64,000 bases of DNA from Nitrospirales bacterium (GTDB lineage Bacteria > Nitrospirota > Nitrospiria > Nitrospirales > UBA8639). The notes under the pieces were generated by a model. That model was not told the origin of the DNA and did no database searches. It saw only the letters and a list, made by a program, of their open reading frames with translations. Position numbers and translations under genes: made by a program. Below are positions 32,214-51,908 of the stretch, one piece after another. The DNA is taken from positions 160,001 to 224,000 of the forward strand of contig CBDCWC010000003.1 in NCBI GenBank assembly GCA_965223295.1, written 5' to 3'. Numbering within the stretch: position 1 is the first letter of the stretch; every line of letters starts with the position of its first letter.

Positions 32214-32834
32214 ATGCCACTCCTGCCTGATACTCCACATGTTACATCAGCCCCAGACACAGATTCACTAAATTCCGACAGAGAGGATCAGGAATCGAAA
32301 TATCGTGCACTCCTTCACCAGATGGCCTTGGGAAAAGAAGCCGCACTCACCGAGTTTTATCACACCTTCGAAGCAAAAATTTATGCATTTGTGAAAATTC
32401 GTTTAAACGATTCACATGATGCAGCCGACTTACTCAATGACATCATGTGGGAAATTTGGCGGGGAGCCGGTAAATTTGAAGGTCGTTCTTCTGTCACCAC
32501 TTGGGTGTTTGGAATTGCCCGTCACAAAGTGATTGATCGTATTCGCAATCGCGGAAAACACCCTGTGGAACCCTTGGAAGTGACCACTGAAAAAGAATCA
32601 GACTATGATTTGGAGGGCATCATTGTACAAAAGGAAATGGGAGAACATCTTCAGCATTGTCTCCAGAAGCTCTCGCCGGACCATCATCAGACAGTCCATC
32701 TGGCATTTTTTGAAGATTTGTCATATCGAGAAATTGGAGAAATTGTGGGCAGCCCGGAAGGTACCATCAAAGCGCGCATGTTTCATGCCAAGCAGGCACT
32801 CAAACGCTGTTTAGCTAGACGCATTCGTGAGTAA
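32214..32834 (+). CDS. ECF sigma factor (paralog 1)
   Basis: Region 2 (DAADLLNDIMWEIW..FEGRSSVTTWVFGIARHK) and region 4 (LSYREIGEIVGSPEGTIKARMFHAK); GGAGG RBS before ATG 32214. Confidence 0.93.
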   Translation: MPLLPDTPHVTSAPDTDSLNSDREDQESKYRALLHQMALGKEAALTEFYHTFEAKIYAFVKIRLNDSHDAADLLNDIMWEIWRGAGKFEGRSSVTTWVFGIARHKVIDRIRNRGKHPVEPLEVTTEKESDYDLEGIIVQKEMGEHLQHCLQKLSPDHHQTVHLAFFEDLSYREIGEIVGSPEGTIKARMFHAKQALKRCLARRIRE

Positions 32835-32846
32835 CGAGAGGACTGT

Positions 32847-33461
32847 ATGAGTAAAACTTCAACAGACAAACAAGAGCACCCGGATAAATTGCTACCATGG
32901 TTTGTCAACGAAACACTCTCAAGTAACGAACGAGATGATGTCGCGCAACATGTTCAAGCTTGCTCCCGATGTCAACAGGAAATTGCTCTGCTCCAACGAA
33001 TAAGGACACATATCAAAGAAACGCACACTCAATCTCCGGGAGAATTTGGCCTTAAGCGGCTCCTGTCCGAAATTCGAAAGGAACAGGCTGTCACCAAAGT
33101 AGAACGACTAAGACCTTCTGGATGGTGGCAAAAAGGATTTGCCATTGCGGCTTCGTTGATCATTTTTATCCAAGCTGGATTTCTCTTGGATGCCTGGTAT
33201 TTGTCCAAACCGATGGTTCCGCTAGCTGGTCCACAAACACATGAACAAGTCCTGCAGATCTCTTTTCAACCAACTGCGACAGAAGCACAAATACGAGAAG
33301 CGATGAGTCATATTCATGGAACATTTATCGATGGGCCAAGTTCTTTAGGCCTTTATCGAGTTCGTCTCAATACGGCAGCCTCTCCTGAAACACCCATCCG
33401 ACAAACCATTGAACAACTTCGCCAACAGACGACAATCATCCAACATGTTGCAGAAGACTAA
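32847..33461 (+). CDS. Zinc-binding (zf-HC2) anti-sigma factor, single TM
   Basis: LLPWFVNETL..HVQACSRC (HxxxCxxC), TM helix, periplasmic domain. Confidence 0.88.
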   Translation: MSKTSTDKQEHPDKLLPWFVNETLSSNERDDVAQHVQACSRCQQEIALLQRIRTHIKETHTQSPGEFGLKRLLSEIRKEQAVTKVERLRPSGWWQKGFAIAASLIIFIQAGFLLDAWYLSKPMVPLAGPQTHEQVLQISFQPTATEAQIREAMSHIHGTFIDGPSSLGLYRVRLNTAASPETPIRQTIEQLRQQTTIIQHVAED

Positions 33462-33477
33462 AGATGGAGGCAATGAT

Positions 33478-34854
33478 ATGCTGAGCCAATTTTTTCAACT
33501 TGCCGTAACATTGTCACTCATTCTTAGCTCAATCTCTGTAATCTCCTGTACCACCTCCACACCTCAGAGTCAATCGATTCAATCTCCCTCCGAACAACAG
33601 AAGCAGCTTGTCGGATCACGAATCAACAATCAAGACACCGCCCGTGCATTTGATCGTCTCCGAACCAGAGGCCTTCGAGATCACGAGGATATTGATCTGA
33701 ATAGGCTCGAGCCTGGGGAAGTGTGTGTGATAAATGTGAATGAAGCCGACGCCAGAAAATTAGATGAATTCGCACAAGCCAGAGGTTACACCAAGAAAAA
33801 ACGCCGGATACTCAACAACCTCGGGTTCGTGATGAGTATTTTCCACGCACCGCCCGGACAAAGTCTCCAGGAAGCAATCCTGGCGATCCAAGAAGCTTTT
33901 CCGTCACAAATCATCGACGCAAACCATCACTATTACCTACAGGAGCAGACCCTGCCGATCAATCCTCTTCTCTACGGACACCGACTAGTAGGGTGGACTG
34001 ATCACGCCATTGGTTGTGTCATCCATGAGATATCAATCGGAATGATTGACACCGCAGTGAATATGAGACGTCTCCCGGCAAAACAACGCACAATTCACAC
34101 CAAATCATTTATCCCTCCCAATGCATCAAAGCCTCAGGATTATCATGGAACAGCGGTGGCCACACTTCTCGTTGGGCAAGCTCACACAACAAACCATGCC
34201 TTACTTCCCCAAGCTTCGTTGTTCGTGGCAGAGGCATTTCGGCAAAAAGAAGCCGGCAAGGTCGAAGCAACTACTTGGAGTATCGTACGAGCGTTGGACT
34301 GGCTCGTAGAACAACATGTACAAGTCATTAATCTTAGTTTAGGGGGTCCACCGAATGCCTTGCTTTCCTATGCCATCACCACGACCCTAAACCAGAGCAT
34401 ACCAATTGTTGCTGCTGGAGGAAATGCAGGCCCTGACGGACATCCCATCTATCCAGCCGCACAACCTGGCGTCATTGCCGTAACAGCATTAGACGCAAAA
34501 CTTCATCCGTATCGTTACGCCAACAGAGGGTCTTACATTTCGTTTTCTGCTCCAGGCGTCGACATATGGATCCCTCAAGAAGGTGGGACCGGGGCCTTTC
34601 AATCTGGAACATCATTTGCGACTCCATTTGTCACAACGGCAACCGCTGCAGTCAAACAATTAAACCCGCATTGGACTCCAGATCAAATTGTATACCAACT
34701 AGCTCGTACGGCTGTGGACTTGGGAACCACAGGCAAGGATGAAACCTTTGGTTGGGGACTCATCCAAATTCCACACACTTGTCCAAATACCTCGTCATCT
34801 CTTCACACTCAATCCTCTAGCATGAATCCTGATTCAAAAAGAGTGAAGCATTGA
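33478..34854 (+). CDS. Subtilisin-like S8 protease, probable lipoprotein
   Basis: IGMIDT, HGTAVA, AAGGN, SGTSFATP; lipobox-like VISC; GGAGG RBS. Confidence 0.9.
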   Translation: MLSQFFQLAVTLSLILSSISVISCTTSTPQSQSIQSPSEQQKQLVGSRINNQDTARAFDRLRTRGLRDHEDIDLNRLEPGEVCVINVNEADARKLDEFAQARGYTKKKRRILNNLGFVMSIFHAPPGQSLQEAILAIQEAFPSQIIDANHHYYLQEQTLPINPLLYGHRLVGWTDHAIGCVIHEISIGMIDTAVNMRRLPAKQRTIHTKSFIPPNASKPQDYHGTAVATLLVGQAHTTNHALLPQASLFVAEAFRQKEAGKVEATTWSIVRALDWLVEQHVQVINLSLGGPPNALLSYAITTTLNQSIPIVAAGGNAGPDGHPIYPAAQPGVIAVTALDAKLHPYRYANRGSYISFSAPGVDIWIPQEGGTGAFQSGTSFATPFVTTATAAVKQLNPHWTPDQIVYQLARTAVDLGTTGKDETFGWGLIQIPHTCPNTSSSLHTQSSSMNPDSKRVKH

Positions 34855-35144
34855 TAGCAAAAAATCACTAACTTTTCGAACGATACTGCCCTTAGTTCCC
34901 CTTCCCCAGAGACTCCAAAAGCGTGAAGTGACCTAGCGAAAATAGATTGATTCCAACAGAAGTGCTCACTTTTAGAATAGATCCGTGCCCATCCTTCAAT
35001 TTTGCTCAAAATAATTACAACCATTTTCCTTCACACTACCACTTACCCTACAACACCCTTTGACAGAGTAGTCATTGAACAGGTTTCGACAGCACCCCAA
35101 TATTTTGGTCTGCATTCATTATCAAAGGGGCGAGTGAGGAGGCC

Positions 35145-35741
35145 ATGATGCCAAAATTTATTATATATCTATATCTCTTGCTATCTTTCGGACTCACTAG
35201 TTCAATCTCACCGATCCATGCCGAGGTTCGTCTCATTCACAACACCCTCACAGTTGATAGCCACAATAAGACCTTGAAGGATGTTCTGGATGACCTACGA
35301 CAACAAGGAAATTTCAACATTGTCGCCTTTGAAGAAACAATAATCGGCAATGTGAGAATATCCAAACAATTCTGGAACCTCCCACTTGAAAAAGGTTTAG
35401 ATCGACTTCTCAGTGGCTGGAATTACGGAATCAACCGTGATGGATCAACAGGCAAAATTACCGTACTGTATCTTGTTTCTCAGCGGAAAGGCCCAGCACC
35501 TTTCTCTCGTGTTCTATCGGCCTCCATAGCACAACCATCAAGTTACAATGCCTATGAGGCACAAACTTGGCCAACGGGTTTGAGCGAAACCCATAACGCG
35601 CAATCCACCGATTCTGACGATGAAGAAGAGGACAAAGAGTTTACAAGCGAATTAGATTCCCTCAGCGAGCATGAGCTCAAAAATCTCCCACCTGACCTCC
35701 GTAAACAAGCTATAAATTTGTACCGAAATGACCACTCTTAG
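35145..35741 (+). CDS. Secreted protein with STN/secretin-N-like domain and acidic tail
   Basis: Signal peptide; LTVDSHNKTLKDVLDDL..ISKQFWNLPLEKGLDRLLSGWNY pattern. Confidence 0.6.
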   Translation: MMPKFIIYLYLLLSFGLTSSISPIHAEVRLIHNTLTVDSHNKTLKDVLDDLRQQGNFNIVAFEETIIGNVRISKQFWNLPLEKGLDRLLSGWNYGINRDGSTGKITVLYLVSQRKGPAPFSRVLSASIAQPSSYNAYEAQTWPTGLSETHNAQSTDSDDEEEDKEFTSELDSLSEHELKNLPPDLRKQAINLYRNDHS

Positions 35742-35913
35742 AATGGCCTCTATTCTTTTATCGTGTCTATTAGAGAACTCTTTACTCAAAATGAATAGGA
35801 TCAAATCATATCATGCAAGCTTTTTATGATAATGATACAACCAAAATGCTCATGTTGACGACTTACCTCATGACACGTTCAAAAATAATCGACTTATTTA
35901 AAGGAATAACACA

Positions 35914-36612
35914 ATGAACATCACCTCGATCTTACACCAAATAATAAATGGGAATTATCTATGTAGAAGACAAACAATGAAGAATGAAGAACCATGGACT
36001 TCGACACAGGAGCGTTGGGAAAAGGAGGAACGATGCCAAGAGCTTGACGTGCACTTTAATTGTGTAGCCTCAAGCAAGCAGCCAGTGCTGCTATGGAAGT
36101 ACGAAGACACAGATACCTCGGAAGTTGCCAAGTTGTTGCACAAAAGGAGTCCCTTTTGCAAGCATCACCTTGTGACCGTATCTTGTCGAACCGACCCTTT
36201 CAAGACTTGGGGAATGGCTCTGTCTCAGCTTATCGTGCCACATCAACCCAGAACGGACGAACAACCTGCAGACCCAATTACCATGGTTCCTGGTGGAACG
36301 TTGTTTATCAATGATCTAGAGTTCTTGCCTTTTGAACTACAACGCCTGCTCTATGCGTTATTGGATCAAGATGGAGTCATTCGATTTATGGGTAAGAATG
36401 CCCACGGCGTTGAAATCAGAGTCATAGCCTCCACGACTACAGATATTTGGAAAAAATGCCAAGAAGGATTCTTTCACGCCAGTCTCTTGTATCAACTCAA
36501 TCGTTTAAACGTCCATGACCTCTCCTGTCCTATGCATTCACTACTCTCGTTCAAAAAAAGTGATCGCCTGTCTCCAGACGATATGCCCCCTCTCAAGCGC
36601 ATAATTCATTGA
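35914..36612 (+). CDS. Degenerate stand-alone sigma54-interaction (AAA+) domain protein 1
   Basis: GGTLFINDLEFLPFELQRLL, EIRVIAST, GFFHASLLYQLN retained; Walker A and GAFTGA absent. Confidence 0.75.
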   Translation: MNITSILHQIINGNYLCRRQTMKNEEPWTSTQERWEKEERCQELDVHFNCVASSKQPVLLWKYEDTDTSEVAKLLHKRSPFCKHHLVTVSCRTDPFKTWGMALSQLIVPHQPRTDEQPADPITMVPGGTLFINDLEFLPFELQRLLYALLDQDGVIRFMGKNAHGVEIRVIASTTTDIWKKCQEGFFHASLLYQLNRLNVHDLSCPMHSLLSFKKSDRLSPDDMPPLKRIIH

Positions 36613-37363: not shown

Positions 37364-39970
37364 TTACGGCGTACCCATAAAGAACTGATCAGTTTCTGAT
37401 TCAAAGGGTTCTGTCTCATCATCGATAGAATTCAAGAGGATGATCAGATCTTTCCTTTGCTGCTCACTGAGTGCGCCCTGAATAGTAGAATTTCCTAACT
37501 GGTGCACCGCAAACACTTCCTCAAAGTTTTGCGCACTCCCATCATGTAGGTACGGGGCACCAAAACGGATACCGAGTAACGAGGGCACATTAAAGGCGCC
37601 TTGTGCAGTTAAGGATGCGAATCCTTGTGTGGACTGCCCTGCAATGGCGCCTGCCCCGCGAATTTCAATCGGGCTGTTTGGGTCAAACGTGCCGACGTTC
37701 TCGACGAATCGGAGCGTGCGGTTGCCATCCGCAACAGCAACAATCTGGGGTCCAGCTACCATCAGAGCTGGATCTATTGGTGGAACACCATCAAAGAAAT
37801 TTATCCCTAATGGGTCCACATTGAAGGTGGGGTTATTCTGATACAAAGGACTGGTTCGGCTCTTTGTCCACTTACTCCCACCATGGCAGGACGCACAATT
37901 CGTGGCAAAGACGGTTCGCCCTGTATCAACATCCGCTGGATTCGGCATATTGGGAGACCGGATTGTGGCGATCCACTCGTGCATGGCGTCCAGCGCATCA
38001 CTAACGCCCACCACAGGCCCATGATTAAAGATTTCTGCCGCTTTGTTCTCGCCATTGACATCTGTGGCATGACCAATTCCACCCTGAACGCCCCGTGAGT
38101 TTTGATCAAAGTCCGTAGACGGCGACCCTCGCACCCCGTTCCAGTTCATGATCCGTTGATCAGTCAAATCATTTTTGGTAAATGAACCGGCCAGCTCGAT
38201 GGTTTGTCGCGGACCTGTCGGAAACAGCCAGGTGACCCCATCCATGTGACCATCCTCATGACAGGAAGAACAACTGCTCCAACCATCCTTTGAGGCCTTG
38301 CCCCGAAACTGCAGAGGCTCGATGTTGCGAAGGTCAATATCAAACAGCCCGTCGCCACTGATATCGTGCACATCGGGGATACCCAATGCAGTAAAGAAGA
38401 GCAACTTACCAACTAGGGTCCGATGTTCCGGACTTCCTGCGGGAGGCGGTGTGCTCGAGGGAATATCTCGATTCAACACCTGATTCGATCCTAGATCAAT
38501 TGAAGTCACGGATGTGTTGATCTCGTTGTTGGTATATGCCCGGGTCGCTCCTGAATCAATGACCACGCCACTGGGCATATTTCCAGTCTGCAAACGAATG
38601 ACGTTATCCGGAGCACCAATATCCAGCTTCCCAGAATTATCAAGCTCCGCAGGCAACAGCACGTTACCGCCGCGACTGAGGATAAAGAATTTCTTGCCCT
38701 GGCCATCCGCGTCCATCGCTACGACATCGTTCAGAAAAAGACGGTCCAAGTTTCCTGGCTCCTGAAGCGGTGGCGTTTCGCTGGCTACCTGCGTATTGAG
38801 ATTGAGCGTGAAGTCGTGCTCGCCGCCGTTTTTCTTGTTTTTCTTTCTATCAACTACGGAGACTAAGGCTTGGACATTGTTGTTAAAGATGACCGGAGGT
38901 TCCGGCTGTGCACCAACATTCAGCACATAGAGGTTGTCGCCACGAAGCAGGGCCGCATAGAGGAGGTTCGGATAGACCCCCTGCGGGTCGGAACCAATTG
39001 GCCCATCCGGAGAAGCATCATGGCTATTGGGATCAGGACAGAACACTTCATTGGCCAACAGAGCTGCACCGTCTCCTTGCCTATCTTTTCCACTACTGAA
39101 GAATACGACATCGCCATTATCCTGGAGAATTTGACGAGTCTTGAGACAGAATTGCCGACGGTCCGCCTTAAACCCTGAGTCACCGGGAGGCAAGGTCACT
39201 TGCTTAATCCGGCCCGAAAGGATGGATTGCAAAATCGGCGAGTCTTTTCCAAGCCTGTCCGCCAATCTTGCAGTCGTTAATCCATGAATGACCTTAAAGG
39301 AATCCACGACACCCTGCTTGGCATCGTCAAATCCATCGGGTCTGGCTGGATCGATGAGCTCGCTAAAAAACCGTGTGACATACACGCGTTCATCAATATC
39401 GACTCTGTTGCCATTGTCTGTAATGGCAATGGCCATGGGGTTACCACCTGTCGGCACAGCCCCGATAACCTTCAAGGATTTCATGTCGATAAGAGAGACA
39501 TCACCCGAAGTGTGATTTGCCACAAATGCAAACTGGCCATTTGGCGTCAGAGCAATCCCTCGTGGTTCCTCACCGACCTGAAGCGGGTTTCCATTAAGAG
39601 CCGGAGGGTGAGACATCAAATCAATAACCGAGACAGTGCCATCTCTTCCGTTCGTCACCAAAGCCTTTTTGTCGTCGGGACTAATAGCGACAAATCGGGG
39701 ATCTCGCCCTACTGCAATCTCAGCGATCAAATTCTCCACATCATTCCCATGTTCGTCCCGTACTTCAAGGATCGAGACACTGTCTGCTTGACGATTGACG
39801 ACAACTAAGCGCCGGTCATCAGAAGTCAGTGCGATAGTCGTCGACCGAGTTGGCATTGGCGGAGGCTTTTCAAATTTCCTCTCCATAGAATTCCCTGGAA
39901 TGGGTGTAATGAACTCTAGAGTGAGCCCAAGAACTAAAAGGGTCGAGAATACTCGCGTAAGCTTTCGCAT
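37364..39970 (-). CDS. Secreted YVTN/YncE beta-propeller protein with C-terminal diheme cytochrome c (peroxidase-like) domain
   Basis: VGRDPRFVAISPD, VGEEPRGIALTPNG repeats; CSSCH and CASCH; FNVPSLLG..APYLHDGS; AGGAGG RBS before ATG 39970. Confidence 0.85.
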   Translation of the reverse strand: MRKLTRVFSTLLVLGLTLEFITPIPGNSMERKFEKPPPMPTRSTTIALTSDDRRLVVVNRQADSVSILEVRDEHGNDVENLIAEIAVGRDPRFVAISPDDKKALVTNGRDGTVSVIDLMSHPPALNGNPLQVGEEPRGIALTPNGQFAFVANHTSGDVSLIDMKSLKVIGAVPTGGNPMAIAITDNGNRVDIDERVYVTRFFSELIDPARPDGFDDAKQGVVDSFKVIHGLTTARLADRLGKDSPILQSILSGRIKQVTLPPGDSGFKADRRQFCLKTRQILQDNGDVVFFSSGKDRQGDGAALLANEVFCPDPNSHDASPDGPIGSDPQGVYPNLLYAALLRGDNLYVLNVGAQPEPPVIFNNNVQALVSVVDRKKNKKNGGEHDFTLNLNTQVASETPPLQEPGNLDRLFLNDVVAMDADGQGKKFFILSRGGNVLLPAELDNSGKLDIGAPDNVIRLQTGNMPSGVVIDSGATRAYTNNEINTSVTSIDLGSNQVLNRDIPSSTPPPAGSPEHRTLVGKLLFFTALGIPDVHDISGDGLFDIDLRNIEPLQFRGKASKDGWSSCSSCHEDGHMDGVTWLFPTGPRQTIELAGSFTKNDLTDQRIMNWNGVRGSPSTDFDQNSRGVQGGIGHATDVNGENKAAEIFNHGPVVGVSDALDAMHEWIATIRSPNMPNPADVDTGRTVFATNCASCHGGSKWTKSRTSPLYQNNPTFNVDPLGINFFDGVPPIDPALMVAGPQIVAVADGNRTLRFVENVGTFDPNSPIEIRGAGAIAGQSTQGFASLTAQGAFNVPSLLGIRFGAPYLHDGSAQNFEEVFAVHQLGNSTIQGALSEQQRKDLIILLNSIDDETEPFESETDQFFMGTP

Positions 39971-40332
39971 GATGGCACCTCCTTGATCCATCTTGAAAAT
40001 TTCAGAAATACATGTTCTAGACGAAATGGCAGACAACTCGTGTTTCCTATTGTGCGCCTGCCAGAGAAGACAGAGTATTGTGGTGGAAACTACAAGAAAA
40101 ATACTTCATCATAAAGACCTCCTTATTGTGAAATAATGCTACCCATGCCTTTTGGCATTTAGTTCATACTTAGTGAGTCGTTTGAACAAAAGAATTGGTT
40201 GCATGAAAAAATTGTTTCCATAGGCTCATCGAAGAAAGACGAAACCAAACGAACAACCTTCCTGGTCCATCCACGTCCTTTTTCTGTGAATGAACCTCTT
40301 GTGTAAACAACACACATTCATCCTGACCATCC

Positions 40333-41193: not shown

Positions 41194-43020
41194 CTATTTT
41201 TTAACGTCGATTCCCAGCTTTCGCATCCGCGACCACAGGGTTGAGCGGTTCATGCCGAGTAAAGCCGCTGCTCCTTTTGGACCCGCAAGGACTCCGCCGG
41301 TTTTATCAAGTGCATCAAGAATGAGGCTACGCTCGGCGACTTCTAAGGTAGGAGCCTTTGGAGGATTGACCTCCGGTCCGGTTAAAAAACCAATGTGCTC
41401 TTCCGTTAGCACTCGGCCTTGGCAGAGGATGACAGCTCGTTCGAGAATATTTGCCAGCTCACGGACATTCCCCGGCCAATCAAAACGTCGGAGCCTATCA
41501 AATGCCGAATCGCTGATACTCTTAATTGGCTTCCCCATTCTCCTGGAAAAATTTCGCACAAAATAGTTGGCCAACTGTGGGATATCATCCTTTCGTTCTT
41601 TCAGCGAAGGAATGAAAATAGGAAAAATATTTAATCGATAAAACAGATCTGAGCGAAACGAACCGCGCCGTACTTCTTCTTGCAAATCTTTATTGGTTGC
41701 AGCAATCACACGTACATCAACTTTAATGGTGTGCGAGCCACCGACACGCTCGAATTCCTGTTCCTGTAGCACCCGCAAGAGTTTAATCTGCGTGTCATGT
41801 GGCAGCTCACCGACTTCATCCAAAAATATCGTGCCATGATGGGCCAATTCAAACCGGCCTTTCTTCTGTGTACCCGCACCGGTAAATGCCCCCTTCTCAT
41901 GTCCGAACAACTCGCTTTCAACCAAGCCCGCTGGCAATGCTCCGCAGTTTACTTTGATCATGATACGGTCTTTTCGATGACTCGCACTGTGGATCGCCCG
42001 CGCGATCAGTTCTTTTCCGGTTCCAGTTTCCCCGAGCAACAGCACGGTCGAATCCGTCGCCGCGACCATTTCGATATGTTTAAACACTCGCTCCATGGAG
42101 GGCGAGGTCCCGATAATCTCGCCGAAATTGAGTTCGTCTCTAAGCTCCTCTTTCAAATAGACATTTTGGTGATGGAGCCGGTCGAGTTGTTCTTCAGCCT
42201 TCTTTCGCTCCTCTATATCACGTAAAATAATCGTCACCAGGCATTGGCCAGAAATAGTAACCATAGAAAGGGTGCCCTCGATAGGAAACTCTTCTCCATC
42301 ACCTCGAACGGCGGTCTGTCCTTCCGGAACCCAGAGTGGAGTTTTTTTCTTCTGCCGCTTCATGTCATGAACATAGTTTTGAAGCAACCCTCGCAATTCT
42401 TCAGACAGAAACGACTCGAGTGACCGGCCTTCAACCGCTTCACGGTCACACCGAAACATCTTTTCGGCGGACTCATTGTAAAGAACAATTCTTAAGTCTT
42501 CATCCACCGTAATGATCGCATCCATGGCCGTAGTAATGATGCCATTCAGTCGTTCACGACTCTCATAAAGCGCCCGTTCCACTTTTTTTCGTTCAGTCAC
42601 ATCCACCAAAAACGACTGAGTGTGGATAAGCACATGATTCTCATCAAACTTGCCATGTGCAGACAACAACACATCGATGATCTCACCGTTCTTTTTAATG
42701 AACTGCAACTCGAGATTCGTGGCTAAGCCAGTTTTGAGAAACCTTTCTCTAAAGTGATAATCGATCGCATATGCTCCAGATGGCTTCGTCTGAAAGTCAG
42801 TGACCGGCCGGCCAAGAACCTCTTCCCGTCTATAGCCAAGGACATTCAGCCAATGCTGATTCACGCTCACCAGTTTCGCCTCTTTGTTCAAAGAATGCAT
42901 CATGACGGGGGTATGTTCATAGAGGAAACGATGCCGCTCTTCACTTTCTTTCAGCTCAGCCGTGCGTTCTTCAACTCGCCTTTCAAGTTCAGCCGCATCT
43001 CGTTTGCTAAATGAGGACAT
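41194..43020 (-). CDS. PAS-PAS sigma54-dependent activator (bEBP) with Fis-type HTH
   Basis: Two PAS/PAC domains, [56 protein letters not shown]. Confidence 0.95.
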
Positions 43021-43474: not shown

Positions 43475-43490
43475 TGGCATTCATATTGCT
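43475..43490 (+). promoter_or_regulatory. Putative sigma54 promoter for ECF paralog 2
   Basis: TGGCATTCATATTGCT (GG-N10-GC), divergent from the bEBP gene. Confidence 0.7.
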
Positions 43491-43559: not shown

Positions 43560-44186
43560 ATGCTAGCCCCTCATCATCCCACATCAGCCCTAAACAAAGA
43601 CTCCTTGCGCAAACAAATGGAACACACACGAAGCAAGGACAATGATCATCACCAAGCGCTCATAACGAAAATGGCGAGAGGGAGTGAAGAGGCCTTATCG
43701 GAATTTTACCGGATCTTTGAGAAAAAGATTTATGCGTTCGTGCAAATCCGTTTAAACGATTCTCATGATGCCACCGACTTACTGAATGAAATCATGTGGG
43801 AGGTTTGGAAGGGCGCTGCGCGGTTTGAAGGTCGTTCAGCGGTCACAAGCTGGGTCTTTGGAATCGCTCATCACAAAATCGTTGATCGCATACGAAGCAA
43901 AACTCGGCATCCCACGGAACAACTTGAAACCATCGAATCTTATGAATCAGATCTCGATCTTGAAACCCTTGTAGGAAAGAGGCAGTTAGGGAGCCATATT
44001 CAACATTGCATGGAGAAGTTATCTCATGAACAGCGGCAGGTTGTACATTTCGCGTTCTTTGAAGACTTCTCGTATCGGGAGATCAGTGAGATCGTTGGGA
44101 GTCCAGAAGGCACGATTAAGGCACGAATGTTTCATGCCAAGCAAGCACTCAAACGCTGCCTAGCAAGACGGCTCAAAGCAGATTGA
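43560..44186 (+). CDS. ECF sigma factor (paralog 2, no adjacent anti-sigma)
   Basis: Closely similar to 32214-32834; identical EIVGSPEGTIKARMFHAKQALKRCLARR; start uncertain (43560 or 43618). Confidence 0.92.
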   Translation: MLAPHHPTSALNKDSLRKQMEHTRSKDNDHHQALITKMARGSEEALSEFYRIFEKKIYAFVQIRLNDSHDATDLLNEIMWEVWKGAARFEGRSAVTSWVFGIAHHKIVDRIRSKTRHPTEQLETIESYESDLDLETLVGKRQLGSHIQHCMEKLSHEQRQVVHFAFFEDFSYREISEIVGSPEGTIKARMFHAKQALKRCLARRLKAD

Positions 44187-44268: not shown

Positions 44269-45240
44269 ATGGTGGCAAAATATCGGAATAACCTACCACA
44301 ACTATCCGATGAAATATTTCTTACTGATGGTGGCATGGAAACGACGCTTGTATTCCATGAGGGGTTGGATCTTCCTGCCTTCGCGGCCTTTACGTTGCTT
44401 AAAGCAGAAGAGGGACGACAAGCCATGCGTGAGTATTTTGATCGCTATATTCCACTCGCCACTAAAAACGAGCTGGGGTTTGTGCTGGAAAGCCCTACAT
44501 GGCGAGCGAATCCAGACTGGGCCGCGAAAATTGGGTATGGGCCAGAGGATTTGCATGCGGCGAATCGCGAGGGAATTTCTTTTATAGAAGAAATTCGTGG
44601 TCGCCATGAAACAACGCAGTCTAAAATGCCAATAAGCGGCTGCATCGGCCCCCAGGGCGATGGATATAATCCCTCCTGTTTTATGAGTGCAGAAGAAGCC
44701 GAACAATACCATCAGTCGCAAATTGATACGTTCAAGGATACAGCTGCTGACTTTGTCACGTCCTTTACGATCTGCTATGCGGAGGAAGCTATTGGTATCA
44801 CGCGGGCCGCCCAGAATGCGGGTATACCCGTCACTATAGGCTTTACCCTTGAGACAGATGGAAGGCTTCCAAGTGGGCAATCTCTCAAAGATGCCATTGA
44901 GCAAGTCGATGGCGAAACGGGAAATCTTCCCATTTACTACATGGTCAATTGTGCTCACCCTACGCATTTTATGAATGTGTTCGTGGGCGAACCTTGGGCA
45001 GAACGTATCCGCGCGATCCGTGCCAACTCTTCAAAAATGAGCCATGCAGAGCTAGATAATGCTGAAAAGTTGGATGAAGGCAACCCGCAAGAGTTTGGGC
45101 AGGAATATCTTCTGTTACGTTCAAAACTCCCAAACCTAAATATACTTGGCGGTTGCTGCGGCACAGACCATCGTCATGTGGAAAGTGTGTGCCAGATATG
45201 GCTGAGAGATAGCCATGAAGTTTTGGCCGGGCAAAACTAA
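44269..45240 (+). CDS. Homocysteine S-methyltransferase-family protein
   Basis: LTDGGMET, IGPQGDGY, VNCAHP, GGCCG zinc ligands. Confidence 0.9.
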   Translation: MVAKYRNNLPQLSDEIFLTDGGMETTLVFHEGLDLPAFAAFTLLKAEEGRQAMREYFDRYIPLATKNELGFVLESPTWRANPDWAAKIGYGPEDLHAANREGISFIEEIRGRHETTQSKMPISGCIGPQGDGYNPSCFMSAEEAEQYHQSQIDTFKDTAADFVTSFTICYAEEAIGITRAAQNAGIPVTIGFTLETDGRLPSGQSLKDAIEQVDGETGNLPIYYMVNCAHPTHFMNVFVGEPWAERIRAIRANSSKMSHAELDNAEKLDEGNPQEFGQEYLLLRSKLPNLNILGGCCGTDHRHVESVCQIWLRDSHEVLAGQN

Positions 45241-45280
45241 TCTGATACGGAGGGAAATAGTGAAGGAGCTAGATAATTCC

Positions 45281-45337
45281 CGAATGTTTCCTGCCAAGCA
45301 AGCGCTCAACCGCTGTTTGTCCAGAAAGATCAAATAA
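45281..45337 (+). pseudogene. Remnant 3' end of an ECF sigma gene
   Basis: RMFPAKQALNRCLSRKIK* versus RMFHAKQALKRCLARRLKAD* of ECF paralog 2. Confidence 0.85.
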
Positions 45338-46102: not shown

Positions 46103-46108
46103 CACTTC

Positions 46109-46196
46109 GTCATTCCCGCGTGGGCGGGAATCTAAATTCGCCAGTCACGAAGCTGGTGAAGAAAGGTGGATACCCGCCACATTCTGCGGGTATGAC
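46109..46196. repeat. Pair of REP/dRS3-like hairpins
   Basis: gtcattcccgcgtgggcgggaatcta ... tggatacccgccacattctgcgggtatgac. Confidence 0.7.
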
Positions 46197-46464
46197 AAGA
46201 TTTGGGATTAGGACACATGGTTCGAACAGGTTCACATGACACGTATCGAAACCTCATTCTGAGTTCGTCGAAAAATGGTTTAACAGGGACATCTTAGATG
46301 GGTGACATATAAAACATTCTGCTAGCGTTTAAGGGAAGAAACGCTAGAACCATTCTACGCAGCAGGGCAACGCGCGAGTCCGCAAGCGAAGGATGAAAAA
46401 GAAGGCTTCCCAAATAAAAAGTATTGTTCACCAACACATTTCATGTTTAACAAGGAGAATGATC

Positions 46465-47103
46465 ATGAACCATCGATCACTTATACACACATCAGTAAGC
46501 AGTTTATTCATGCTTGCATTGCTCACTGCCGGGACTGGGGTCTCGGCACAAGATAACGTTGCGGACTTCTTGCAGGAGGGCGACGACAATGTCGCGACCA
46601 TTGTCCAAGTCCCGGACGCTGAGGGAGTGGAAGCCTTTATTAGTCAAGCCGGCGATGACAACACGGCGGAAATCGTCCAAAACCAGAACTCCTCACACAA
46701 TCTGGCTATCATCGACCAAAGCGGCGATGGAAACAACACGGATATTAACCAATTTGGAGGCTCATCCAACAACGTGGCTATGATCGACCAAAGCGGCGAT
46801 GACAATAATGCGCTAATCCAGCAAAATCTAAACTCCGTCGACAATGTGGCCACCGTCGACCAAAGCGGCAATGACAACTCCGCATTTCTCGAACAAATCA
46901 ATGGTACTGAAAACAATACAGCCTCCATTGATCAAAGCGGCGATGACAATTCGGCCGCCATTTTCCAACTTGGCACGAACAACGTCGCCAGCGTGGATCA
47001 ATCGGGAGATGACAATGAGGCCAATGTGAACATGATTGACAATTTCGACATGGTGTCTGTGGTGCAATCTGGCAATGGTAACGTAGCCAATTACAACCCA
47101 TGA
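46465..47103 (+). CDS. csgA: Major curlin-like subunit 1 (8 repeats, acidic)
   Basis: Signal peptide ending VSA; NxAx(I/V)DQSGDxNxAxIxQ repeats; AAGGAG RBS. Confidence 0.8.
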   Translation: MNHRSLIHTSVSSLFMLALLTAGTGVSAQDNVADFLQEGDDNVATIVQVPDAEGVEAFISQAGDDNTAEIVQNQNSSHNLAIIDQSGDGNNTDINQFGGSSNNVAMIDQSGDDNNALIQQNLNSVDNVATVDQSGNDNSAFLEQINGTENNTASIDQSGDDNSAAIFQLGTNNVASVDQSGDDNEANVNMIDNFDMVSVVQSGNGNVANYNP

Positions 47104-47127
47104 ATTGAAGAGTTCATGGATGGATAA

Positions 47128-47163
47128 GGGCCTGGGGAGGGAGATAACCCTCCCTCCACAGCC
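47128..47163 (+). terminator. Hairpin after csgA1
   Basis: ggagggag-ataacc-ctccctcc stem. Confidence 0.45.
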
Positions 47164-47240
47164 AAAGAAGAATAGTACATGGACCACAATTAACCACTCA
47201 TTTTCAGCCTAGCTGGTAATGTTGACGAAAGAGGATTGAA

Positions 47241-48467
47241 ATGAAACATCGATCATTCAGACATACATCAATCACCAGTCTATTCGTGCTTGCATTGCTC
47301 ACTGCCGGAACCGAGGTCTCGGCACAAGATAACGTGGCGGACTTCCTACAGGAAGGAGATAACAATGTAGCCACCATACTTCAAGTCCCGGATGCTGAAG
47401 GAGTCGAGGCTATTATTAGTCAAGCCGGAAATGACAACGAGGCGGAAATTGAGCAAGCGGGGGAGGATATTGCCCACCTTGTTGTTTCTATCAACCAAAG
47501 CGGCGATGGAAACGACGCGGATATCCTCCAAGAAAATGACTCCTCGAACAACGTAGCCTCTATCAACCAAAGTGGCAATGGGAACGATGGGGAGATCAAC
47601 CAAGAGTTGAACTCTTCCAACAACGAGGCCACCATCGACCAAAGTGGCGATGGGAACAATGCGGATGTCCTCCATGAGATAGACTCGTTTGACAACGTTG
47701 GCTCCGTCGATCAAAGCGGAAATGACAACCTTGCAGATATTACCCAAGATTTTGACTCCGCGAACAACGTAGCCTCTATCGACCAAAGTGGCGATGGGAA
47801 CACGGCCGATATTAACCAGAACGAGGATTCTGAAAACAATACAGCCTCCATTGATCAAAGTGGCGATGACAATGTAGCGGAAATCAACCAAAGTCTGGAA
47901 GCCGGAAACAATGAAGCAAACATCACTCAAGATGGGGACGGCAACTTTGCGAAAGTTGAACAAGATGAAGCAGCCGAAGGCAATGTAGGTTCTATCGACC
48001 AGAGTGGCGACAACAACGAGGCGGGCATTACTCAAGACGATGTCTCGGAAAACAATGTTGCCAACATCAATCAGAGTGGGAATAACAACTTTGCGGAGCT
48101 TGAGCAGCAAATCACTTCTTCCCACAACACAGCCTCCATCGTCCAAAGCGGAGATGGCAATGAGGCAACTCTCGAACAGCTACTCACTTCTTCCCACAAC
48201 ACAGCCTCTATCGTCCAAAGCGGTAACACGAATGCAGCTAACATAAATCAAAGTCTTAACTCTGAAAACAATGAAGCCACGATTGACCAAAGTGGCAATG
48301 ACAACTTGGCAAGTATTAATCAGAGTGTTGACAGTATGAACAATGTAGCCAGTGTGGACCAATCCGGCGACAATAACGAAGCCTTAATTAATATGACCGG
48401 TCAAGAATTTGATGTGGTGAATGTTGTACAGTCAGGGAATGGCAATGAGGCCTTTTATAACCCATGA
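47241..48467 (+). CDS. csgA: Major curlin-like subunit 2 (16 repeats, acidic)
   Basis: Paralog of 46465-47103; 24-aa (72-nt) QSG repeats. Confidence 0.8.
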   Translation: MKHRSFRHTSITSLFVLALLTAGTEVSAQDNVADFLQEGDNNVATILQVPDAEGVEAIISQAGNDNEAEIEQAGEDIAHLVVSINQSGDGNDADILQENDSSNNVASINQSGNGNDGEINQELNSSNNEATIDQSGDGNNADVLHEIDSFDNVGSVDQSGNDNLADITQDFDSANNVASIDQSGDGNTADINQNEDSENNTASIDQSGDDNVAEINQSLEAGNNEANITQDGDGNFAKVEQDEAAEGNVGSIDQSGDNNEAGITQDDVSENNVANINQSGNNNFAELEQQITSSHNTASIVQSGDGNEATLEQLLTSSHNTASIVQSGNTNAANINQSLNSENNEATIDQSGNDNLASINQSVDSMNNVASVDQSGDNNEALINMTGQEFDVVNVVQSGNGNEAFYNP

Positions 48468-48892
48468 ATCAAAGATCTCACAGAGGCTTTAGTGGCATGA
48501 TTACTTGGAGAGCGAGTGCCCACCTTCCTGGGTGGGTGCTCTGCCTAGGGGTTGGCCTCTGGTTATGTTTGGGACCAGTTGAGGCAGGGCAATCTTCTCT
48601 CCACACGGCAGATGAGGAAGCACAGATGGATACGAATCAGCAAATCATCATCCAAGAAGGCCAGAATAATCACAAAGCCATCACCCAGGATGGTGAGCAT
48701 CTGAAGCTGCGCCTGGAGCAGCGCGGAACCGATAACAAGTCAACCATTACTCAACAAGGTAATGACAATCAGGCGGAGTCGATTCAAGAGGGTGATCGCA
48801 ACAGTAGTCGCATTCGTCAAAAAGGTTCTGGCAACCGAGCCGCCATTCGACAGGATGGTTCTTCGCGAACCAAGAAGCGAGAGACCTCATGA
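48464..48892 (+). CDS. Minor curlin-repeat protein with basic C-terminus
   Basis: Signal-like N-terminus; QxGxxN repeats (QEGQNN, QRGTDN, QQGNDN, QKGSGN); start could be 48497. Confidence 0.75.
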   Translation: MNQRSHRGFSGMITWRASAHLPGWVLCLGVGLWLCLGPVEAGQSSLHTADEEAQMDTNQQIIIQEGQNNHKAITQDGEHLKLRLEQRGTDNKSTITQQGNDNQAESIQEGDRNSSRIRQKGSGNRAAIRQDGSSRTKKRETS

Positions 48893-49332
48893 GAAACACG
48901 CTGCCCCGTTACATACTCTTGCAAGTCGGGCTACAAATGTGGTGTCTCGTTTTTATCATGGGCTTGCTCTCGCCCATGGCGACTCTGGCTGTGACGCCGC
49001 CCCGAGAAGATGAAACAGACGATACTTTCTTGGGGATTGCGGGCTTGGTCGTGGATGAAACACGCACGGTAGCGGGGCGACGATTTTTCGAAGGCCTCGC
49101 TTCTCAATTGACGGATCTTGGGGGACAGACAGAGAACATTGTGGTGACCGAGCTGGCAGATCCCCGCTTTGGCAGCCGCCTCTCAGTCAACGTGGGACCC
49201 GCACTCGTCTTTCGGCGATTTTTGGCCCCGCGGCTGGGAGATGTCGACAAGGAAGTGGAATTGGCGGTATCCAGAGTCCATCGAGTATTGAACATGGCAC
49301 ACCAGCTTCAGCAAGCATTGGAGATGTACTAA
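48889..49332 (+). CDS. csgE: Curli assembly protein CsgE
   Basis: GLVVDETRTVAGRRFF..NIVVTE..PRFGSRLSV..VFRRFLAP. Confidence 0.85.
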   Translation: MRNTLPRYILLQVGLQMWCLVFIMGLLSPMATLAVTPPREDETDDTFLGIAGLVVDETRTVAGRRFFEGLASQLTDLGGQTENIVVTELADPRFGSRLSVNVGPALVFRRFLAPRLGDVDKEVELAVSRVHRVLNMAHQLQQALEMY

Positions 49333-49399
49333 TGGGCCATGAGTGGCGACACCTTCGTCGTCAAAGCACACATTGGATAGGCCACAAGGGAGGGTTGAG

Positions 49400-49825
49400 A
49401 TGAAATGTTTTTTTATACTTCTTTCGCTAATATTTTCCTTTTTCACGTGGGATGGCAACGTGCATCAATCAGCAGCCTCGGAACTCCGGCATACCTTTAC
49501 GAATCCGAATTTTGGGGGCAACCCGTTTAATGGTCAACCTCTCTTAAATTCCGCTGTCTTACAGAATGATTTTGACGGAGAGGAGGACGACAGTCGGCCC
49601 GGAGTCCTTGAAGATTTTCAGACTCGCTTAGATCGGGCTATTTTCAATCGCCTGTCCCGCGAAATTGTGGCGGAAGCCTTCGGCGAGGACAGTGACCTCA
49701 CCCCAGGCACCTTTGATACAGGGGATTTTCAGATTGACATCTCCGAAGATGTCGACGGGGTGACGGTTGGCATCGTGGACAAGCTGACGGGGGATACCAC
49801 CACCATCCAAGTTCCGTTTTTTTAA
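49400..49825 (+). CDS. csgF: Curli assembly protein CsgF
   Basis: SELRHTFTNPNFGGNPFNGQPLLNSAVLQN; TGDTTTIQVP. Confidence 0.92.
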   Translation: MKCFFILLSLIFSFFTWDGNVHQSAASELRHTFTNPNFGGNPFNGQPLLNSAVLQNDFDGEEDDSRPGVLEDFQTRLDRAIFNRLSREIVAEAFGEDSDLTPGTFDTGDFQIDISEDVDGVTVGIVDKLTGDTTTIQVPFF

Positions 49826-49867
49826 TGCCATGGCATTATTGTGATTTTGATAAGGAGATGTGTTGTC

Positions 49868-50785
49868 ATGAACGTACACCGGAAATTTCTTATTCTCGTT
49901 GGATACCTCGTCTGCGTATTCAGTGGCTGTTCCCCGATGATTCAGCCGATGAGCAGTGGCAAGGCCGTGGTTGGATATGAGTCGCACGTGTTCGAACAAT
50001 TGGCCGCCCTCCCACCCCCGTCCGAACCCATTGTGGTCTCAGTGTATAAATTTCGTGATCAGACGGGCCAGTACAAACCCAGTGACACCGTGCTGCAGTA
50101 TTCCACAGCCGTCACGCAAGGAGCCACCTCCCTCTTGATTAAAGCGTTGATGGATGCAGGACAAGGCACATGGTTTACGGTATTAGAGCGAGAAAACTTG
50201 TCAAGTCTGTTAAATGAACGGAAAATCATTCGCCAGACACGCAAGCAGTACACCAATGGAAACAGCACATTGCCGCCCTTACCGCCGCTCCTCTATGCCC
50301 CGATCATGTTGGATGGCGGGATTGTGGCCTATGAATCCAATTTGCTCAGCGGCGGCATGGGAGCTCGATATTTTGGAGCTGGAGGATTCACAGAATTTCG
50401 TCGCGATACGGTGACGGTCGATTTGCGAGCGATTTCTGTGAAGCGCGGGACGATTCTCAAAACCTTGCAAACCCGTAAAACGATCTTTTCTGCCAAATTA
50501 GAGGGAGGGTTATTTCGATTTGTGGATCCATTGCGTCTTTTTGAAGCAGAAATCGGGATATCAAGCAACGAACCACCGCAAATGGCAGTACGGGAAGCCA
50601 TTGAAATGGCCGTGTACGGCCTGATTTTGGATGGAGTCGGCAGCAATCTCTGGTCATTCGCAGATCCAGAAGCTGCCGCCCCAATCATCGCGGATTACCT
50701 TGAAGAAAAAGAAGAACAACTGGTTGCTCAATTGAATACCGCAAAAAACCAAACAGAAAGTTCTTCTTCAGAGTATGAATGGTAA
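49868..50785 (+). CDS. csgG: Curli secretion channel lipoprotein CsgG
   Basis: Lipobox FSGC; VSVYKFRDQTGQYKP, STAVTQGA, ERENLSSLLNERKIIR, SNEP. Confidence 0.95.
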   Translation: MNVHRKFLILVGYLVCVFSGCSPMIQPMSSGKAVVGYESHVFEQLAALPPPSEPIVVSVYKFRDQTGQYKPSDTVLQYSTAVTQGATSLLIKALMDAGQGTWFTVLERENLSSLLNERKIIRQTRKQYTNGNSTLPPLPPLLYAPIMLDGGIVAYESNLLSGGMGARYFGAGGFTEFRRDTVTVDLRAISVKRGTILKTLQTRKTIFSAKLEGGLFRFVDPLRLFEAEIGISSNEPPQMAVREAIEMAVYGLILDGVGSNLWSFADPEAAAPIIADYLEEKEEQLVAQLNTAKNQTESSSSEYEW

Positions 50786-50919
50786 GCGATCATTCGCTTT
50801 GACCAATGGTTGCGTACAATTTTGTCGTTTCTCTCCTAAACCTCTTTCTCCGCTCATCCCCTCTCCCATCTCATGGAGCTAAGAAGTCTGGTCTACACTC
50901 ACACCCCTTTTATACTTTA

Positions 50920-51131
50920 GAGTCTGTTGAAAAAAACCGTCAGCGGCGTTCTCGCCATTTTTCCGTGCTCACGTAGGACCAGTCCGCTCTGTACGCAAAA
51001 ATGGCTGTGGCCTTTCTAGACGGACTCTTCGACAGACTCAGTGAATGCTTTTTGAACCAACCCGAGGCCGCTCATCGTCTACGGGTCCCTGACGAAATAT
51101 GCCCCTTGATATCTTCATTATTCAACACTCC
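50920..51131 (+). mobile_element. MITE-like element, copy 6
   Basis: gagtctgttgaaaaaa ... ttattcaacactcc. Confidence 0.8.
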
Positions 51132-51233
51132 TTTTTATTATAAAATCATTCTCAAGTGTAAGTAATCTTCAACGATTACCCGTGTTCTTACGACTTACCT
51201 ATTGATACGCTTAACGGCAACAGACTTCAAGAA

Positions 51234-51908
51234 GTGAGTCAAAAGATGAAGGGCTATGAAACCTGCAACCCTTACGATTGTAAGGCAACAATGTTCGAAT
51301 TGAGATTAGACATGGGGAAAAAGAGCGAAAACCATAGAAGGATTGCCTTACCATCACAACCCTGGAAGGCGGCTTGGGCCATCGACAAGAGTGAGGATCA
51401 ATTGGCCCATATTGCCGTGGTGGATCCACCTGTATTTTTATGGAAGAACCGAAACGCAGACACCATCACGAGAAATTTCGCTCGTGCTATTCACGAAAAA
51501 AGCCGATTTGCTAAGCAGCCATTTATGACGATCTCCTGTCAATCAAATCCACAGTCTTCCTGGAAACAAGCGATGGCGCAGTTGAAGTTCCGTAGTTCTT
51601 TTGACACGATGAGCATCTCACTGAAAAGTGAACTGGAAACCTGTATCCCCGGGGGCACCCTCTATCTAGATGAGGTCGCAGCCTTACCTTGGGAGCTACA
51701 GCGTGGGTTATTAGCGTTGATTGATCATGACGGGTTGATTCGGTTTGTACGCGCCGATAGACAAGAGGTGGAAGTTCGTATCATCTCAGCCTCAACGATG
51801 GAACTCTGGAACACAATTGCAAAGGGGACGTTGCGTGCAGACCTCTTTTTCCGGCTCAACGTGCTAGCGATGCGAGTCCCCTCCCAAACAGTGAACGTTC
51901 AGGCATAA
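51234..51908 (+). CDS. Degenerate stand-alone sigma54-interaction domain protein 2
   Basis: FARAIHEKS..PFMTISC, PGGTLYLDEVAALPWELQRGLL, EVRIISAS, LRADLFFRLNV; no Walker A or GAFTGA; start uncertain. Confidence 0.78.
   Translation: MSQKMKGYETCNPYDCKATMFELRLDMGKKSENHRRIALPSQPWKAAWAIDKSEDQLAHIAVVDPPVFLWKNRNADTITRNFARAIHEKSRFAKQPFMTISCQSNPQSSWKQAMAQLKFRSSFDTMSISLKSELETCIPGGTLYLDEVAALPWELQRGLLALIDHDGLIRFVRADRQEVEVRIISASTMELWNTIAKGTLRADLFFRLNVLAMRVPSQTVNVQA

Follow-up and report, generated by a model that had tools for sequence, protein, structure and literature searches.

A mosaic island with a predicted sigma-54-dependent ECF sigma factor gene and a curli cassette beside an ECF33-like module in a Nitrospirales bacterium

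Enterobacterial curli are encoded by csgBAC and csgDEFG and are controlled by CsgD and RpoS. In Pseudomonas syringae, HrpR and HrpS together with sigma-54 transcribe the gene of HrpL, a sigma factor of the extracytoplasmic function (ECF) type (group ECF32) that lacks an anti-sigma factor and does not regulate its own gene, and paralogous AAA+ proteins as well as the modulator HrpV participate in this control (PMC3105312, PMC4145663, PMC7826278). Another group, ECF33 (EcfQ of Bradyrhizobium; Casas-Pastor et al. 2021), is characterised by a zinc-finger anti-sigma factor with one transmembrane (TM) helix encoded at position +1, in subgroups s2 and s3 also by a subtilase gene at +2, and by a promoter with TGAACCTTT at -35 and a -10 element containing AC, its members being there given as 100% Proteobacteria (PMC7826278). 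Here we analyse a stretch of 64,000 nucleotides (nt) from a Nitrospirales bacterium (hereafter the window, C3:160001-224000 of the 3.78-Mb genome G000), in which four curlin genes and csgE, csgF and csgG lie in one 20-kb region with two related ECF genes (ECF1 and ECF2) and the gene of a bacterial enhancer-binding protein (bEBP).

A preliminary description of this region had proposed a cascade in which the bEBP and sigma-54 would transcribe ECF2, and ECF2, with ECF1, would transcribe the curli genes directly from ECF promoters. The reading that we favour, and to which we give a probability of roughly 55%, differs in the last step. A mosaic accessory island would have been inserted beside a widely conserved ECF33-like module (ECF1, a zinc-finger anti-sigma factor, an S8 protease and a protein here called unk198). 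A signal sensed by the PAS domains would act through the bEBP and sigma-54 on an operon that starts from the promoter at 43475 and comprises ECF2 and then a homocysteine S-methyltransferase gene (HcyMT). A curli cassette of four curlin genes and csgEFG, carrying the stump of an ECF2-type gene, would have been spliced between HcyMT and frag2, and the curli genes would be transcribed by read-through from the sigma-54 promoter, alongside ECF2 and not downstream of it. ECF2, having no anti-sigma factor, would fire the family promoters that lie in this locus before unk198, frag1, propCytc and frag2, and frag3, at a distant site of the genome, has such a promoter too; the predicted ECF targets in the region are neighbours of the curli genes and not curli. 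The comparisons covered 401 genomes of the order and 115 of the family, relatives of the two ECF proteins being sought in one genome per species; they include a 20.6-kb locus (L028) of G110, which belongs to another genus of the same family and has 99% completeness, three congeners of G000 (G015, G016 and G021) and a sister Nitrospirales genus (g11).

Sigma-54, ECF2 and the curli cassette

The gene at 41194..43020 on the minus strand encodes a protein of 608 aa that shows the features by which a bEBP is recognised: an AAA+ sigma-54 interaction domain (Sigma54_activat, E 4.5e-73) with Walker A (GETGTGKE) and GAFTGA (EKGAFTGAG) both intact and with Walker B, an AAA lid and a Fis-type helix-turn-helix (HTH; HTH_8), preceded by two PAS domains. 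In the divergent gap between this gene and ECF2 (43617..44186, plus strand, most likely ATG start 43617) lies TGGCATTCATATTGCT at 43475..43490 (+), the predicted sigma-54 -24/-12 promoter of the ECF2 operon. The sigma-54 consensus is TGGCAC-N5-TTGCW, with GG and GC doublets 10 nt apart; the element has its doublets at this distance, in a genome with one copy of rpoN and with a bEBP gene nearby. Both halves of the arrangement already noticed in the preliminary description, the PAS-PAS bEBP with intact GAFTGA and the divergent -24/-12 motif before ECF2, are conserved in G110. The orthologous gap of L028 retains TGGCATCTATGTTGC in the same place (at 9855) amid diverged surroundings, and under a slightly relaxed sigma-54 pattern this element is the sole match in the 20.6-kb locus. 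Among the 401 genomes of the order, G110 alone yielded an ortholog that matches the bEBP over its full length (83% identity), all other matches being at most 61% identical and beginning at query residue 118 or later, and therefore without the first PAS domain. Because the promoter and the gene arrangement are conserved in G110, we infer that the bEBP and sigma-54 transcribe ECF2, a step that we regard as well supported, with a single rpoN in the genome and no anti-sigma gene adjacent to ECF2.

Two other sequences in the window may be recorded here. G000 and G110 each have two copies of the heptamer GAGATAC between the bEBP gene and ECF2; it was picked after the fact and serves only as a lead to a possible bEBP site. 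A second good sigma-54-like motif, TGGCATACTAGTTGCT at 17161-17176 (+), stands 73 nt 5' of an open reading frame (ORF) of 135 aa (17249-17656) that matches no Pfam family.

ECF2 is 65% identical to ECF1 (32214..32834, plus strand; Sigma70_r2 and r4 domains), regions 2 and 4 being nearly identical. In a tree of 24 rows the ECF2 proteins of G000 and G110 form a clade (100/99) within the Nitrospirales ECF clade (97/94), and ECF2 has therefore arisen by duplication within the lineage. No anti-sigma gene adjoins ECF2 in either genome; in G110 HcyMT is followed only by a 59-codon ORF whose start resembles the N-terminus of an anti-sigma factor.

HcyMT (44269..45240, plus strand; PF02574, E 7.5e-32) begins 82 nt after ECF2 and has an 84% identical counterpart in the same position in L028. 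After a gap of 112 nt there follow, all on the plus strand, the four curlin genes cur1 (45353-46102), cur2 (46393-47103), cur3 (47241-48467) and cur4 (48464-48892), with Curlin_rpt matches of E 4e-12 to 4e-52 (PF07012, 46-174 bits), and then csgE (48889-49332; PF10627, 62.4 bits), csgF (49343-49825; PF10614, 113.8 bits, motif NPNFGGNP) and csgG (49841-50785; PF03783, 179.4 bits against a cut-off of 20.8), whose product carries the lipobox VFSGC. A CsgG lipoprotein channel, CsgE and CsgF, and subunits with curlin repeats, that is, the elements that define curli or type VIII secretion, are hence all present, and CsgC was not found among the scanned ORFs. The absence of csgD reported earlier was confirmed, in that no GerE/CsgD-type gene was detected in the window, the closest of the six GerE matches in the genome being at C3:437549. 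Such an absence is ordinary outside Gammaproteobacteria, where csgD is commonly missing and multiple copies of csgA/B are common (PMC3521004).

The left edge of the curli cassette is a 3' remnant of an ECF2-type gene (45262..45337, plus strand), a 25-codon open stump read as ..RMFPAKQALNRCLSRKIK, whose frame ..VKELDNSRMFPAKQALNRCLSRKIK ends at 45337, with the cur1 ATG at 45353, 15 nt further on. A pattern made from the ECF C-terminus has three matches in the whole genome, namely ECF1, ECF2 and this remnant. Its DNA agrees at 50/69 nt with both ECF2 3' ends, as against 45 and 41/69 nt with the two ECF1 3' ends, and the similarity runs about 13 nt beyond the stop codon, as in ECF2-type genes. 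This likeness therefore points to an ECF2-type gene that once directly preceded cur1, in the donor or in an ancestor of the locus, and on this point the preliminary description, which had seen in the remnant an ECF gene leading straight into the curli genes, holds. The sequence can be aligned with that of G110 up to some 22 nt beyond the stop codon of HcyMT and again from position 51168 onwards, and the curli block (about 45263-51165, some 5.9 kb) is therefore an insertion between HcyMT and frag2. At its right edge lies a copy of a genome-wide dispersed repeat (50922..51131), of which an inverted copy is found at about 40830-40960.

Since the cassette lies inside the predicted sigma-54 operon, transcription that starts at the sigma-54 promoter most likely continues into the curli genes. 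Intrinsic terminators are no more frequent than expected by chance between 43.5 and 50.8 kb, nor are sigma-70-like sites in 40.0-52.5 kb. It could also be that the juxtaposition is accidental, the cassette having landed in a recombination hot spot with unrecognised promoters of its own, for example in the gap between cur1 and cur2, and being independent of the bEBP, sigma-54 and the ECF factors. The nested insertions, the two copies in this region of a repeat that recurs at about 310 genomic places, the structured cur1-cur2 gap and a curli context that differs in every lineage would all suit such an accident. However, the ECF stump abuts cur1, so that the cassette is without its native upstream region; the sigma-70-like sites are not above chance (9 found, 13.9 expected); and the cassette points the same way as the sigma-54 operon, with short gaps. 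We therefore hold an accidental juxtaposition to be rather unlikely. Contigs of four public runs contained only strain variants and the high-copy repeat, and no usable alternative junctions.

The dispersed repeat, about 100-210 nt long and present at those ~310 places of the 3.78-Mb genome, folds stably (z = -3.81), has very high contig depth in the public runs and looks like a miniature inverted-repeat transposable element (MITE) or a repetitive extragenic palindromic (REP) element. More copies in the window were seen at 3312-3502, 15562-15746, 27028-27151, 29855-30073, 56317-56429 and 61686-61776.

The ECF-family promoter and its predicted targets

ECF1 is followed on the plus strand by an anti-sigma factor gene (32847..33461) with a zf-HC2 motif and one hydrophobic stretch (PF13490, 22.2 bits, exactly at the cut-off; NF052375 anti-sigma, E 6e-10), by an S8 subtilase gene at position +2 (33409..34854; Peptidase_S8, E 1.2e-30) and by unk198 (35145..35741), which encodes a secreted, weakly STN-like protein of 198 aa and follows the subtilase in Nitrospirales loci. 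These domain matches agree with the ECF paralog, anti-sigma factor and subtilase with which the preliminary description had the region open; its STN-like gene fares less well, since unk198 reaches 13.1 bits (E 0.088) with the STN model, whose cut-off is 28.4, and no more than 0.79-0.82 with the closest atlas clusters that bear a name. The zinc-finger single-TM anti-sigma factor at +1 and the subtilase at +2 reproduce the gene context of ECF33 (subgroups s2 and s3), and we call ECF1 and ECF2 ECF33-like from context and promoter, NCBIfam giving only generic ECF matches below the cut-offs. Orthologs of ECF1 in the congeners are 59-74% identical. Relatives of ECF1 or ECF2 were found at 79 loci, 64 of which hold homologs of both the anti-sigma factor and the subtilase and span Nitrospirota and many Proteobacteria; a metagenome scan with the ECF2 alignment added three short loci (1.1-3.6 kb) without usable gene context.

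A strict promoter pattern, written from the proteobacterial consensus TTGAACC-N16-CGACTCA before the propCytc site had been seen, has three matches in the 3.78-Mb genome, and two of these lie in this region, before frag2 and before propCytc. When the pattern was relaxed and applied to the 79 ECF loci (1.27 Mb), 105 matches were obtained against 14 for the reversed-pattern control, with 93/105 on the strand of the ECF gene, and the form specific to Nitrospirales gave 15 matches against none for the control. The motif recurs in these loci before the ECF gene, between the ECF and anti-sigma genes and after the subtilase gene, as GAACC(T/G)TTT..CGACTCA in Proteobacteria and as CAACCATTT..CGACTTA in Nitrospirales, and thus displays the ECF33 promoter features, TGAACCTTT at -35 and an AC-containing -10 element. 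When the upstream region of frag2 was aligned to that of G110, invariant boxes, TTCAACGA and CGACTTA, were found to flank a diverged 16-nt spacer. All six upstream regions examined, those of frag1, frag2, frag3, propCytc and both frag genes of G110, contain the motif. Comparative enrichment thus shows that the motif is real, and CAACC-N16-CGACTTA is presumably read by ECF2, by ECF1 or by both. Two-block k-mer counts over all 78 upstream regions, which formed the first motif search, yielded nothing, and searches for TTGACC/TGAACC gave a match at 40291 before unk138 without counterpart in L028 and another inside cur2, both of which were dropped.

A position weight matrix (PWM) was built from 23 Nitrospirales sites, all outside the window and including the frag2 site of G110; its null distribution per 300 nt has a median of -2.0 and a 95th percentile of 5.6 bits. 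Twelve matches of at least 18 bits were found in the genome, five of them in this region (35018, 40201, 51170, 32405 and 43754). The site before unk198 (35018..35045, plus strand; CAACC-N16-CCACTTA, 29.0 bits), 99 nt 5' of the gene, is the top match of the whole genome. Sites precede also propCytc (40174..40201, minus strand; CAACCA-N15-CGACTCA, 24.8 bits) and frag2 (51170..51197, plus strand; 21.1 bits, boxes invariant in the G110 ortholog), and the site before frag1 (35838..35865, plus strand; CAACCA-N15-CGACTTA) scores 17.6 bits, just under the 18-bit set. Upstream of ECF2 the best score is -5.5 bits, and ECF2 is hence predicted not to be autoregulated, as is the case for HrpL. For the four gaps between 44187 and 47240, which precede HcyMT, cur1, cur2 and cur3, the highest scores lie between -13.2 and -1.3 bits. 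An ECF promoter driving the bEBP gene was considered as well; its best minus-strand score of 8.9 bits falls between the 95th and 99th percentiles of the null distribution, and it is not claimed.

G110 contains seven motif matches against one for the control, and six of the seven lie 15-95 nt before an ORF. The ORFs so preceded comprise the two frag genes, three genes whose products are secreted or lipoproteins, and a gene for a protein of unknown family; frag2, the second frag gene, an RTX-repeat protein, an Lcl_C protein and a DUF3015 lipoprotein are among the products, and a relaxed scan found the motif also before a PEP-CTERM protein gene just 5' of ECF1. From the placement of the motif in G000 and G110 and the null scores before the curli genes, the regulon of ECF1 and ECF2 is therefore predicted to consist of surface or secreted proteins and of the frag genes, and to exclude curli. 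These sites of G110 lie in L028 (868-2000, 4947-6000 and 12765-15900) and in L126. The RTX-repeat gene with the motif stands after the subtilase, and four more motif matches lie 3' of frag2 amid secreted proteins of about 186 aa that are encoded in tandem, with an Lcl_C domain in two of the three members scanned.

The same data bear on the direct transcription of curli from ECF promoters as proposed in the preliminary description. Curli would fit well among the secreted and surface proteins (PEP-CTERM, RTX, Lcl_C) of the regulon predicted in G110, and the ECF2-type stump 15 nt before cur1 means that curli genes have had an ECF2-type gene as neighbour on at least two occasions. On the other hand, no family promoter precedes HcyMT or any of cur1, cur2 and cur3, as the scores just given indicate; none of the 79 related ECF loci has csg or curlin matches within 10 kb; this ECF and a matching bEBP are missing from all four of the other curli loci that were read; and G110, which holds the ECF2 module, has no curlin-repeat match in its 99% complete genome. 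The synteny search that the preliminary description had suggested as a check found the linkage of the ECF and bEBP genes to csg genes to be unique to this genome. We consequently regard direct ECF control of curli as quite improbable. The twin ECFs may still integrate two signals, as had been supposed, though their predicted outputs are genes other than curli.

Several points weigh against the read-through that we favour. Both kinds of promoter, sigma-54 and ECF, are predicted from sequence, and so is co-transcription. The sigma-54 motif by itself is not above chance in the window, with four matches at one mismatch or fewer against 2.56 expected and with four or more in 27 of 100 shuffles. The score of the frag2 site is not independent, because the PWM includes the G110 frag2 site, and the upstream region of ECF1 in the window has no good motif. 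Two PWM matches, at 32405 (22.6 bits) and 43754 (20.7 bits), both on the plus strand, lie inside the coding sequences of ECF1 and ECF2, where they overlie the conserved RLNDSHDA(A/T)DLL codons; internal promoters could account for them, and so could constraint on the coding sequence. The remnant tells us that ECF2-type genes have stood beside curli at least once before, and there could be a functional tie that the promoter search missed. Finally, the 290-nt gap between cur1 and cur2 (46103-46392) is predicted to form long hairpins (-92 kcal/mol, z = -3.46; 200 shuffles gave no fold as stable). These could weaken read-through, and the genes from cur2 to csgG would then depend on a promoter, of which no sign was found. 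As an attenuator, or else by stabilising the mRNA, the hairpins may set the ratios of the subunits.

The frag genes, the island and curli elsewhere in the order

The products of frag1 (35914..36612, plus strand) and frag2 (51234..51908, plus strand), of about 230 aa, consist only of a degenerate sigma-54 interaction domain, restricted to the AAA+ alpha/beta subdomain (Sigma54_activat being the only match of either). A third copy, frag3 (G000:C3:587570-588274, L027:9570-10277), is part of the Pup-proteasome operon, where its neighbours are prcA and pafA, and is preceded by the same ECF-type motif at C3:587485. All six aligned members of the family are without Walker A, GAFTGA, lid and HTH, and the frag proteins are therefore relatives of bEBPs and not bEBPs. 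The frag2 type retains the Walker B DE and the arginine-finger stretch RxDLFFRLN; the frag1/frag3 type has lost these too. The preliminary description had spoken of two dead bEBP paralogs near the ends of the region, and the loss of the catalytic motifs is indeed evident. The reading frames are intact, however, and frag1 and frag2 are therefore not pseudogenes despite this degeneracy; the dN/dS of frag2 against its G110 ortholog is about 0.20, and given such purifying selection the word dead fits the catalytic motifs and not the gene. Among 5.8 billion proteins searched, two close frag relatives were found (64-65% identical), the other matches being ordinary-looking bEBPs at most 37% identical save for two short local matches of 43-44%. 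Among the 115 genomes of the taxonomic family, frag genes occur only in G000 (three copies) and G110 (two copies), the same two genomes that hold the bEBP-ECF2 module. The N-terminal extension of frag2 (51234-51311; L028:11979-12056) is conserved in G110 as VSQ.MKG..TC....CK.T.F.LR.DM, and its paired cysteines may be a small metal-binding motif.

The frag proteins could be lineage-restricted pseudo-enhancer-binding proteins that are induced by ECF1 and ECF2 and join or cap the ring of the PAS-PAS bEBP, in a feedback loop that would time the ECF2-curli operon. Envelope and PAS signals would then converge on curli through the frag proteins and not through ECF promoters, and the third copy would extend the loop to proteolysis. 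We consider this proposal doubtful and put it forward as a speculation.

In the congeners G015 and G021 the gene order is ABCF-unk191-FADmono-ECF1-antisigma-subtilase-unk198-HtrA-UDG-TPR, so that unk198 abuts HtrA and the 16 kb from frag1 to frag2 (35.9-51.9 kb) have no counterpart. In L028 the order is ECF1-antisigma-subtilase-unk198-unk138-bEBP-ECF2-HcyMT-frag2, without frag1, propCytc and curli, and the conserved unit is therefore bEBP and, divergent from it, ECF2-HcyMT-frag2. The gene propCytc (37364..40036, minus strand), which encodes a beta-propeller and cytochrome c protein, is thus missing from the G110 version of the island; 5' of its called TTG start (40037-40125, minus strand) there is a strong ribosome-binding site with ATGATG and then a 21-codon frame ending in TAG, possibly a leader peptide, a mis-called start or a frameshift. 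Identity to G110 at four-fold degenerate third positions is 0.47-0.60 for island genes and 0.31-0.42 for genes of the ECF1 module, and dS is 0.7-1.2 for the former and 1.3 to saturated for the latter. That the island genes are closer to G110 than the module genes are fits a later lateral exchange of the island. The ECF stump, the degenerate AAA+ genes and the dispersed repeats could also be taken to mark a decaying locus that is no longer expressed. This explanation appears highly improbable, however, as the reading frames are intact in the bEBP gene, in ECF2 and in every curli and frag gene, dN/dS against G110 is 0.07-0.20 for the bEBP, ECF2, HcyMT and frag2, and the promoter boxes have been conserved while their spacers diverged.

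Curli-type CsgG was found in six of the 401 genomes of the order, G000 included. The flanks of four of the five other curli loci hold no ECF of this kind, no matching bEBP and no frag gene. In the congener G016 (L114/L115) the curli cluster lies between two regulators of about 975 aa (OmpR-type winged HTH, AAA_16, TPR); it is the cluster most like the one described here (CsgG 82% identical, or 86% by tblastn), and a ParE/Phd toxin-antitoxin pair adjoins it. The curli loci of g11 (G090, G134 and G252) follow a 614-aa unknown protein and have the same order as here, curlins, csgE, csgF and csgG, with CsgG 75-78% identical, or 74-76% by tblastn. An invariant TGGCATTAATTCTGCTT stands about 58 nt before the first curlin ATG in the three g11 loci read (L116:15423 in G090, L119 near 3931 on the minus strand in G134, L120:14735 in G252), of the four g11 genomes with CsgG. 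A conserved palindrome, GATAC-N5-GTAT, lies about 140-150 nt 5' of it, and the remaining surroundings are diverged. A strict sigma-54 scan of the other curli loci gave no match, and the g11 promoter was found only with a relaxed -12 element, a pattern that occurs 1.16 times per 100 kb in the genome of G000. With TGGCATTAATTCTGCTT invariant before the g11 curlin genes, curli transcription in this genus seems to depend on sigma-54 directly. A search of the literature gave, among the matches listed, no paper linking curli to Nitrospira or Nitrospirales; among the matches listed, curli, nitrospira and csgG occur together only in a survey of outer-membrane protein families.

Comparison with described systems

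If the sigma-54 step is as predicted, the logic of HrpRS-HrpL would exist also in Nitrospirota and in an ECF33-like lineage, having been reached through duplication of an ECF that has an anti-sigma factor. If the read-through is also true, the curli of nitrifier-related bacteria would be under sigma-54, directly in one genus and by operon capture here, and not under CsgD and RpoS as in enterobacteria. The widespread and unstudied ECF-antisigma-subtilase module would gain a testable consensus for its target promoters and a small predicted regulon, and AAA+ paralogs of bEBPs that have lost their motifs and are driven by an ECF would represent a new kind of candidate modulator of sigma-54 activators.

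In the set of curli genes the locus resembles that of enterobacteria, with CsgE, CsgF, the CsgG lipoprotein and subunits with curlin repeats; it differs in having all genes in one direction, four curlins, no CsgD and no upstream region of its own left. The g11 operons differ from it by their own conserved sigma-54-type promoter and in having no ECF, matching bEBP or frag gene nearby. FleT of Rhodobacter sphaeroides is a short relative of bEBPs that has only the AAA+ domain, acts with a full-length bEBP and keeps its ATPase motifs, whereas the frag proteins are without Walker A, GAFTGA and lid. With ECF33, the ECF1 module and its motif share the anti-sigma factor, the subtilase and the promoter features, but the members here belong to Nitrospirota and ECF2 is without the anti-sigma factor at +1. 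The likeness to HrpRS-HrpL lies in a bEBP and sigma-54 acting upstream of an ECF that has no anti-sigma factor, as predicted here from sequence. ECF2, however, groups with the ECF1/ECF33-like clade (97/94) and is no member of ECF32, the bEBP has two PAS sensor domains, the cargo is a methyltransferase and curli genes in place of a type III secretion system, and the AAA+ paralogs, in which Walker A and GAFTGA have been lost, are predicted to be controlled by the ECF and not to activate it. Placed among these systems, the predicted cascade is a new variant of the HrpRS-HrpL type.

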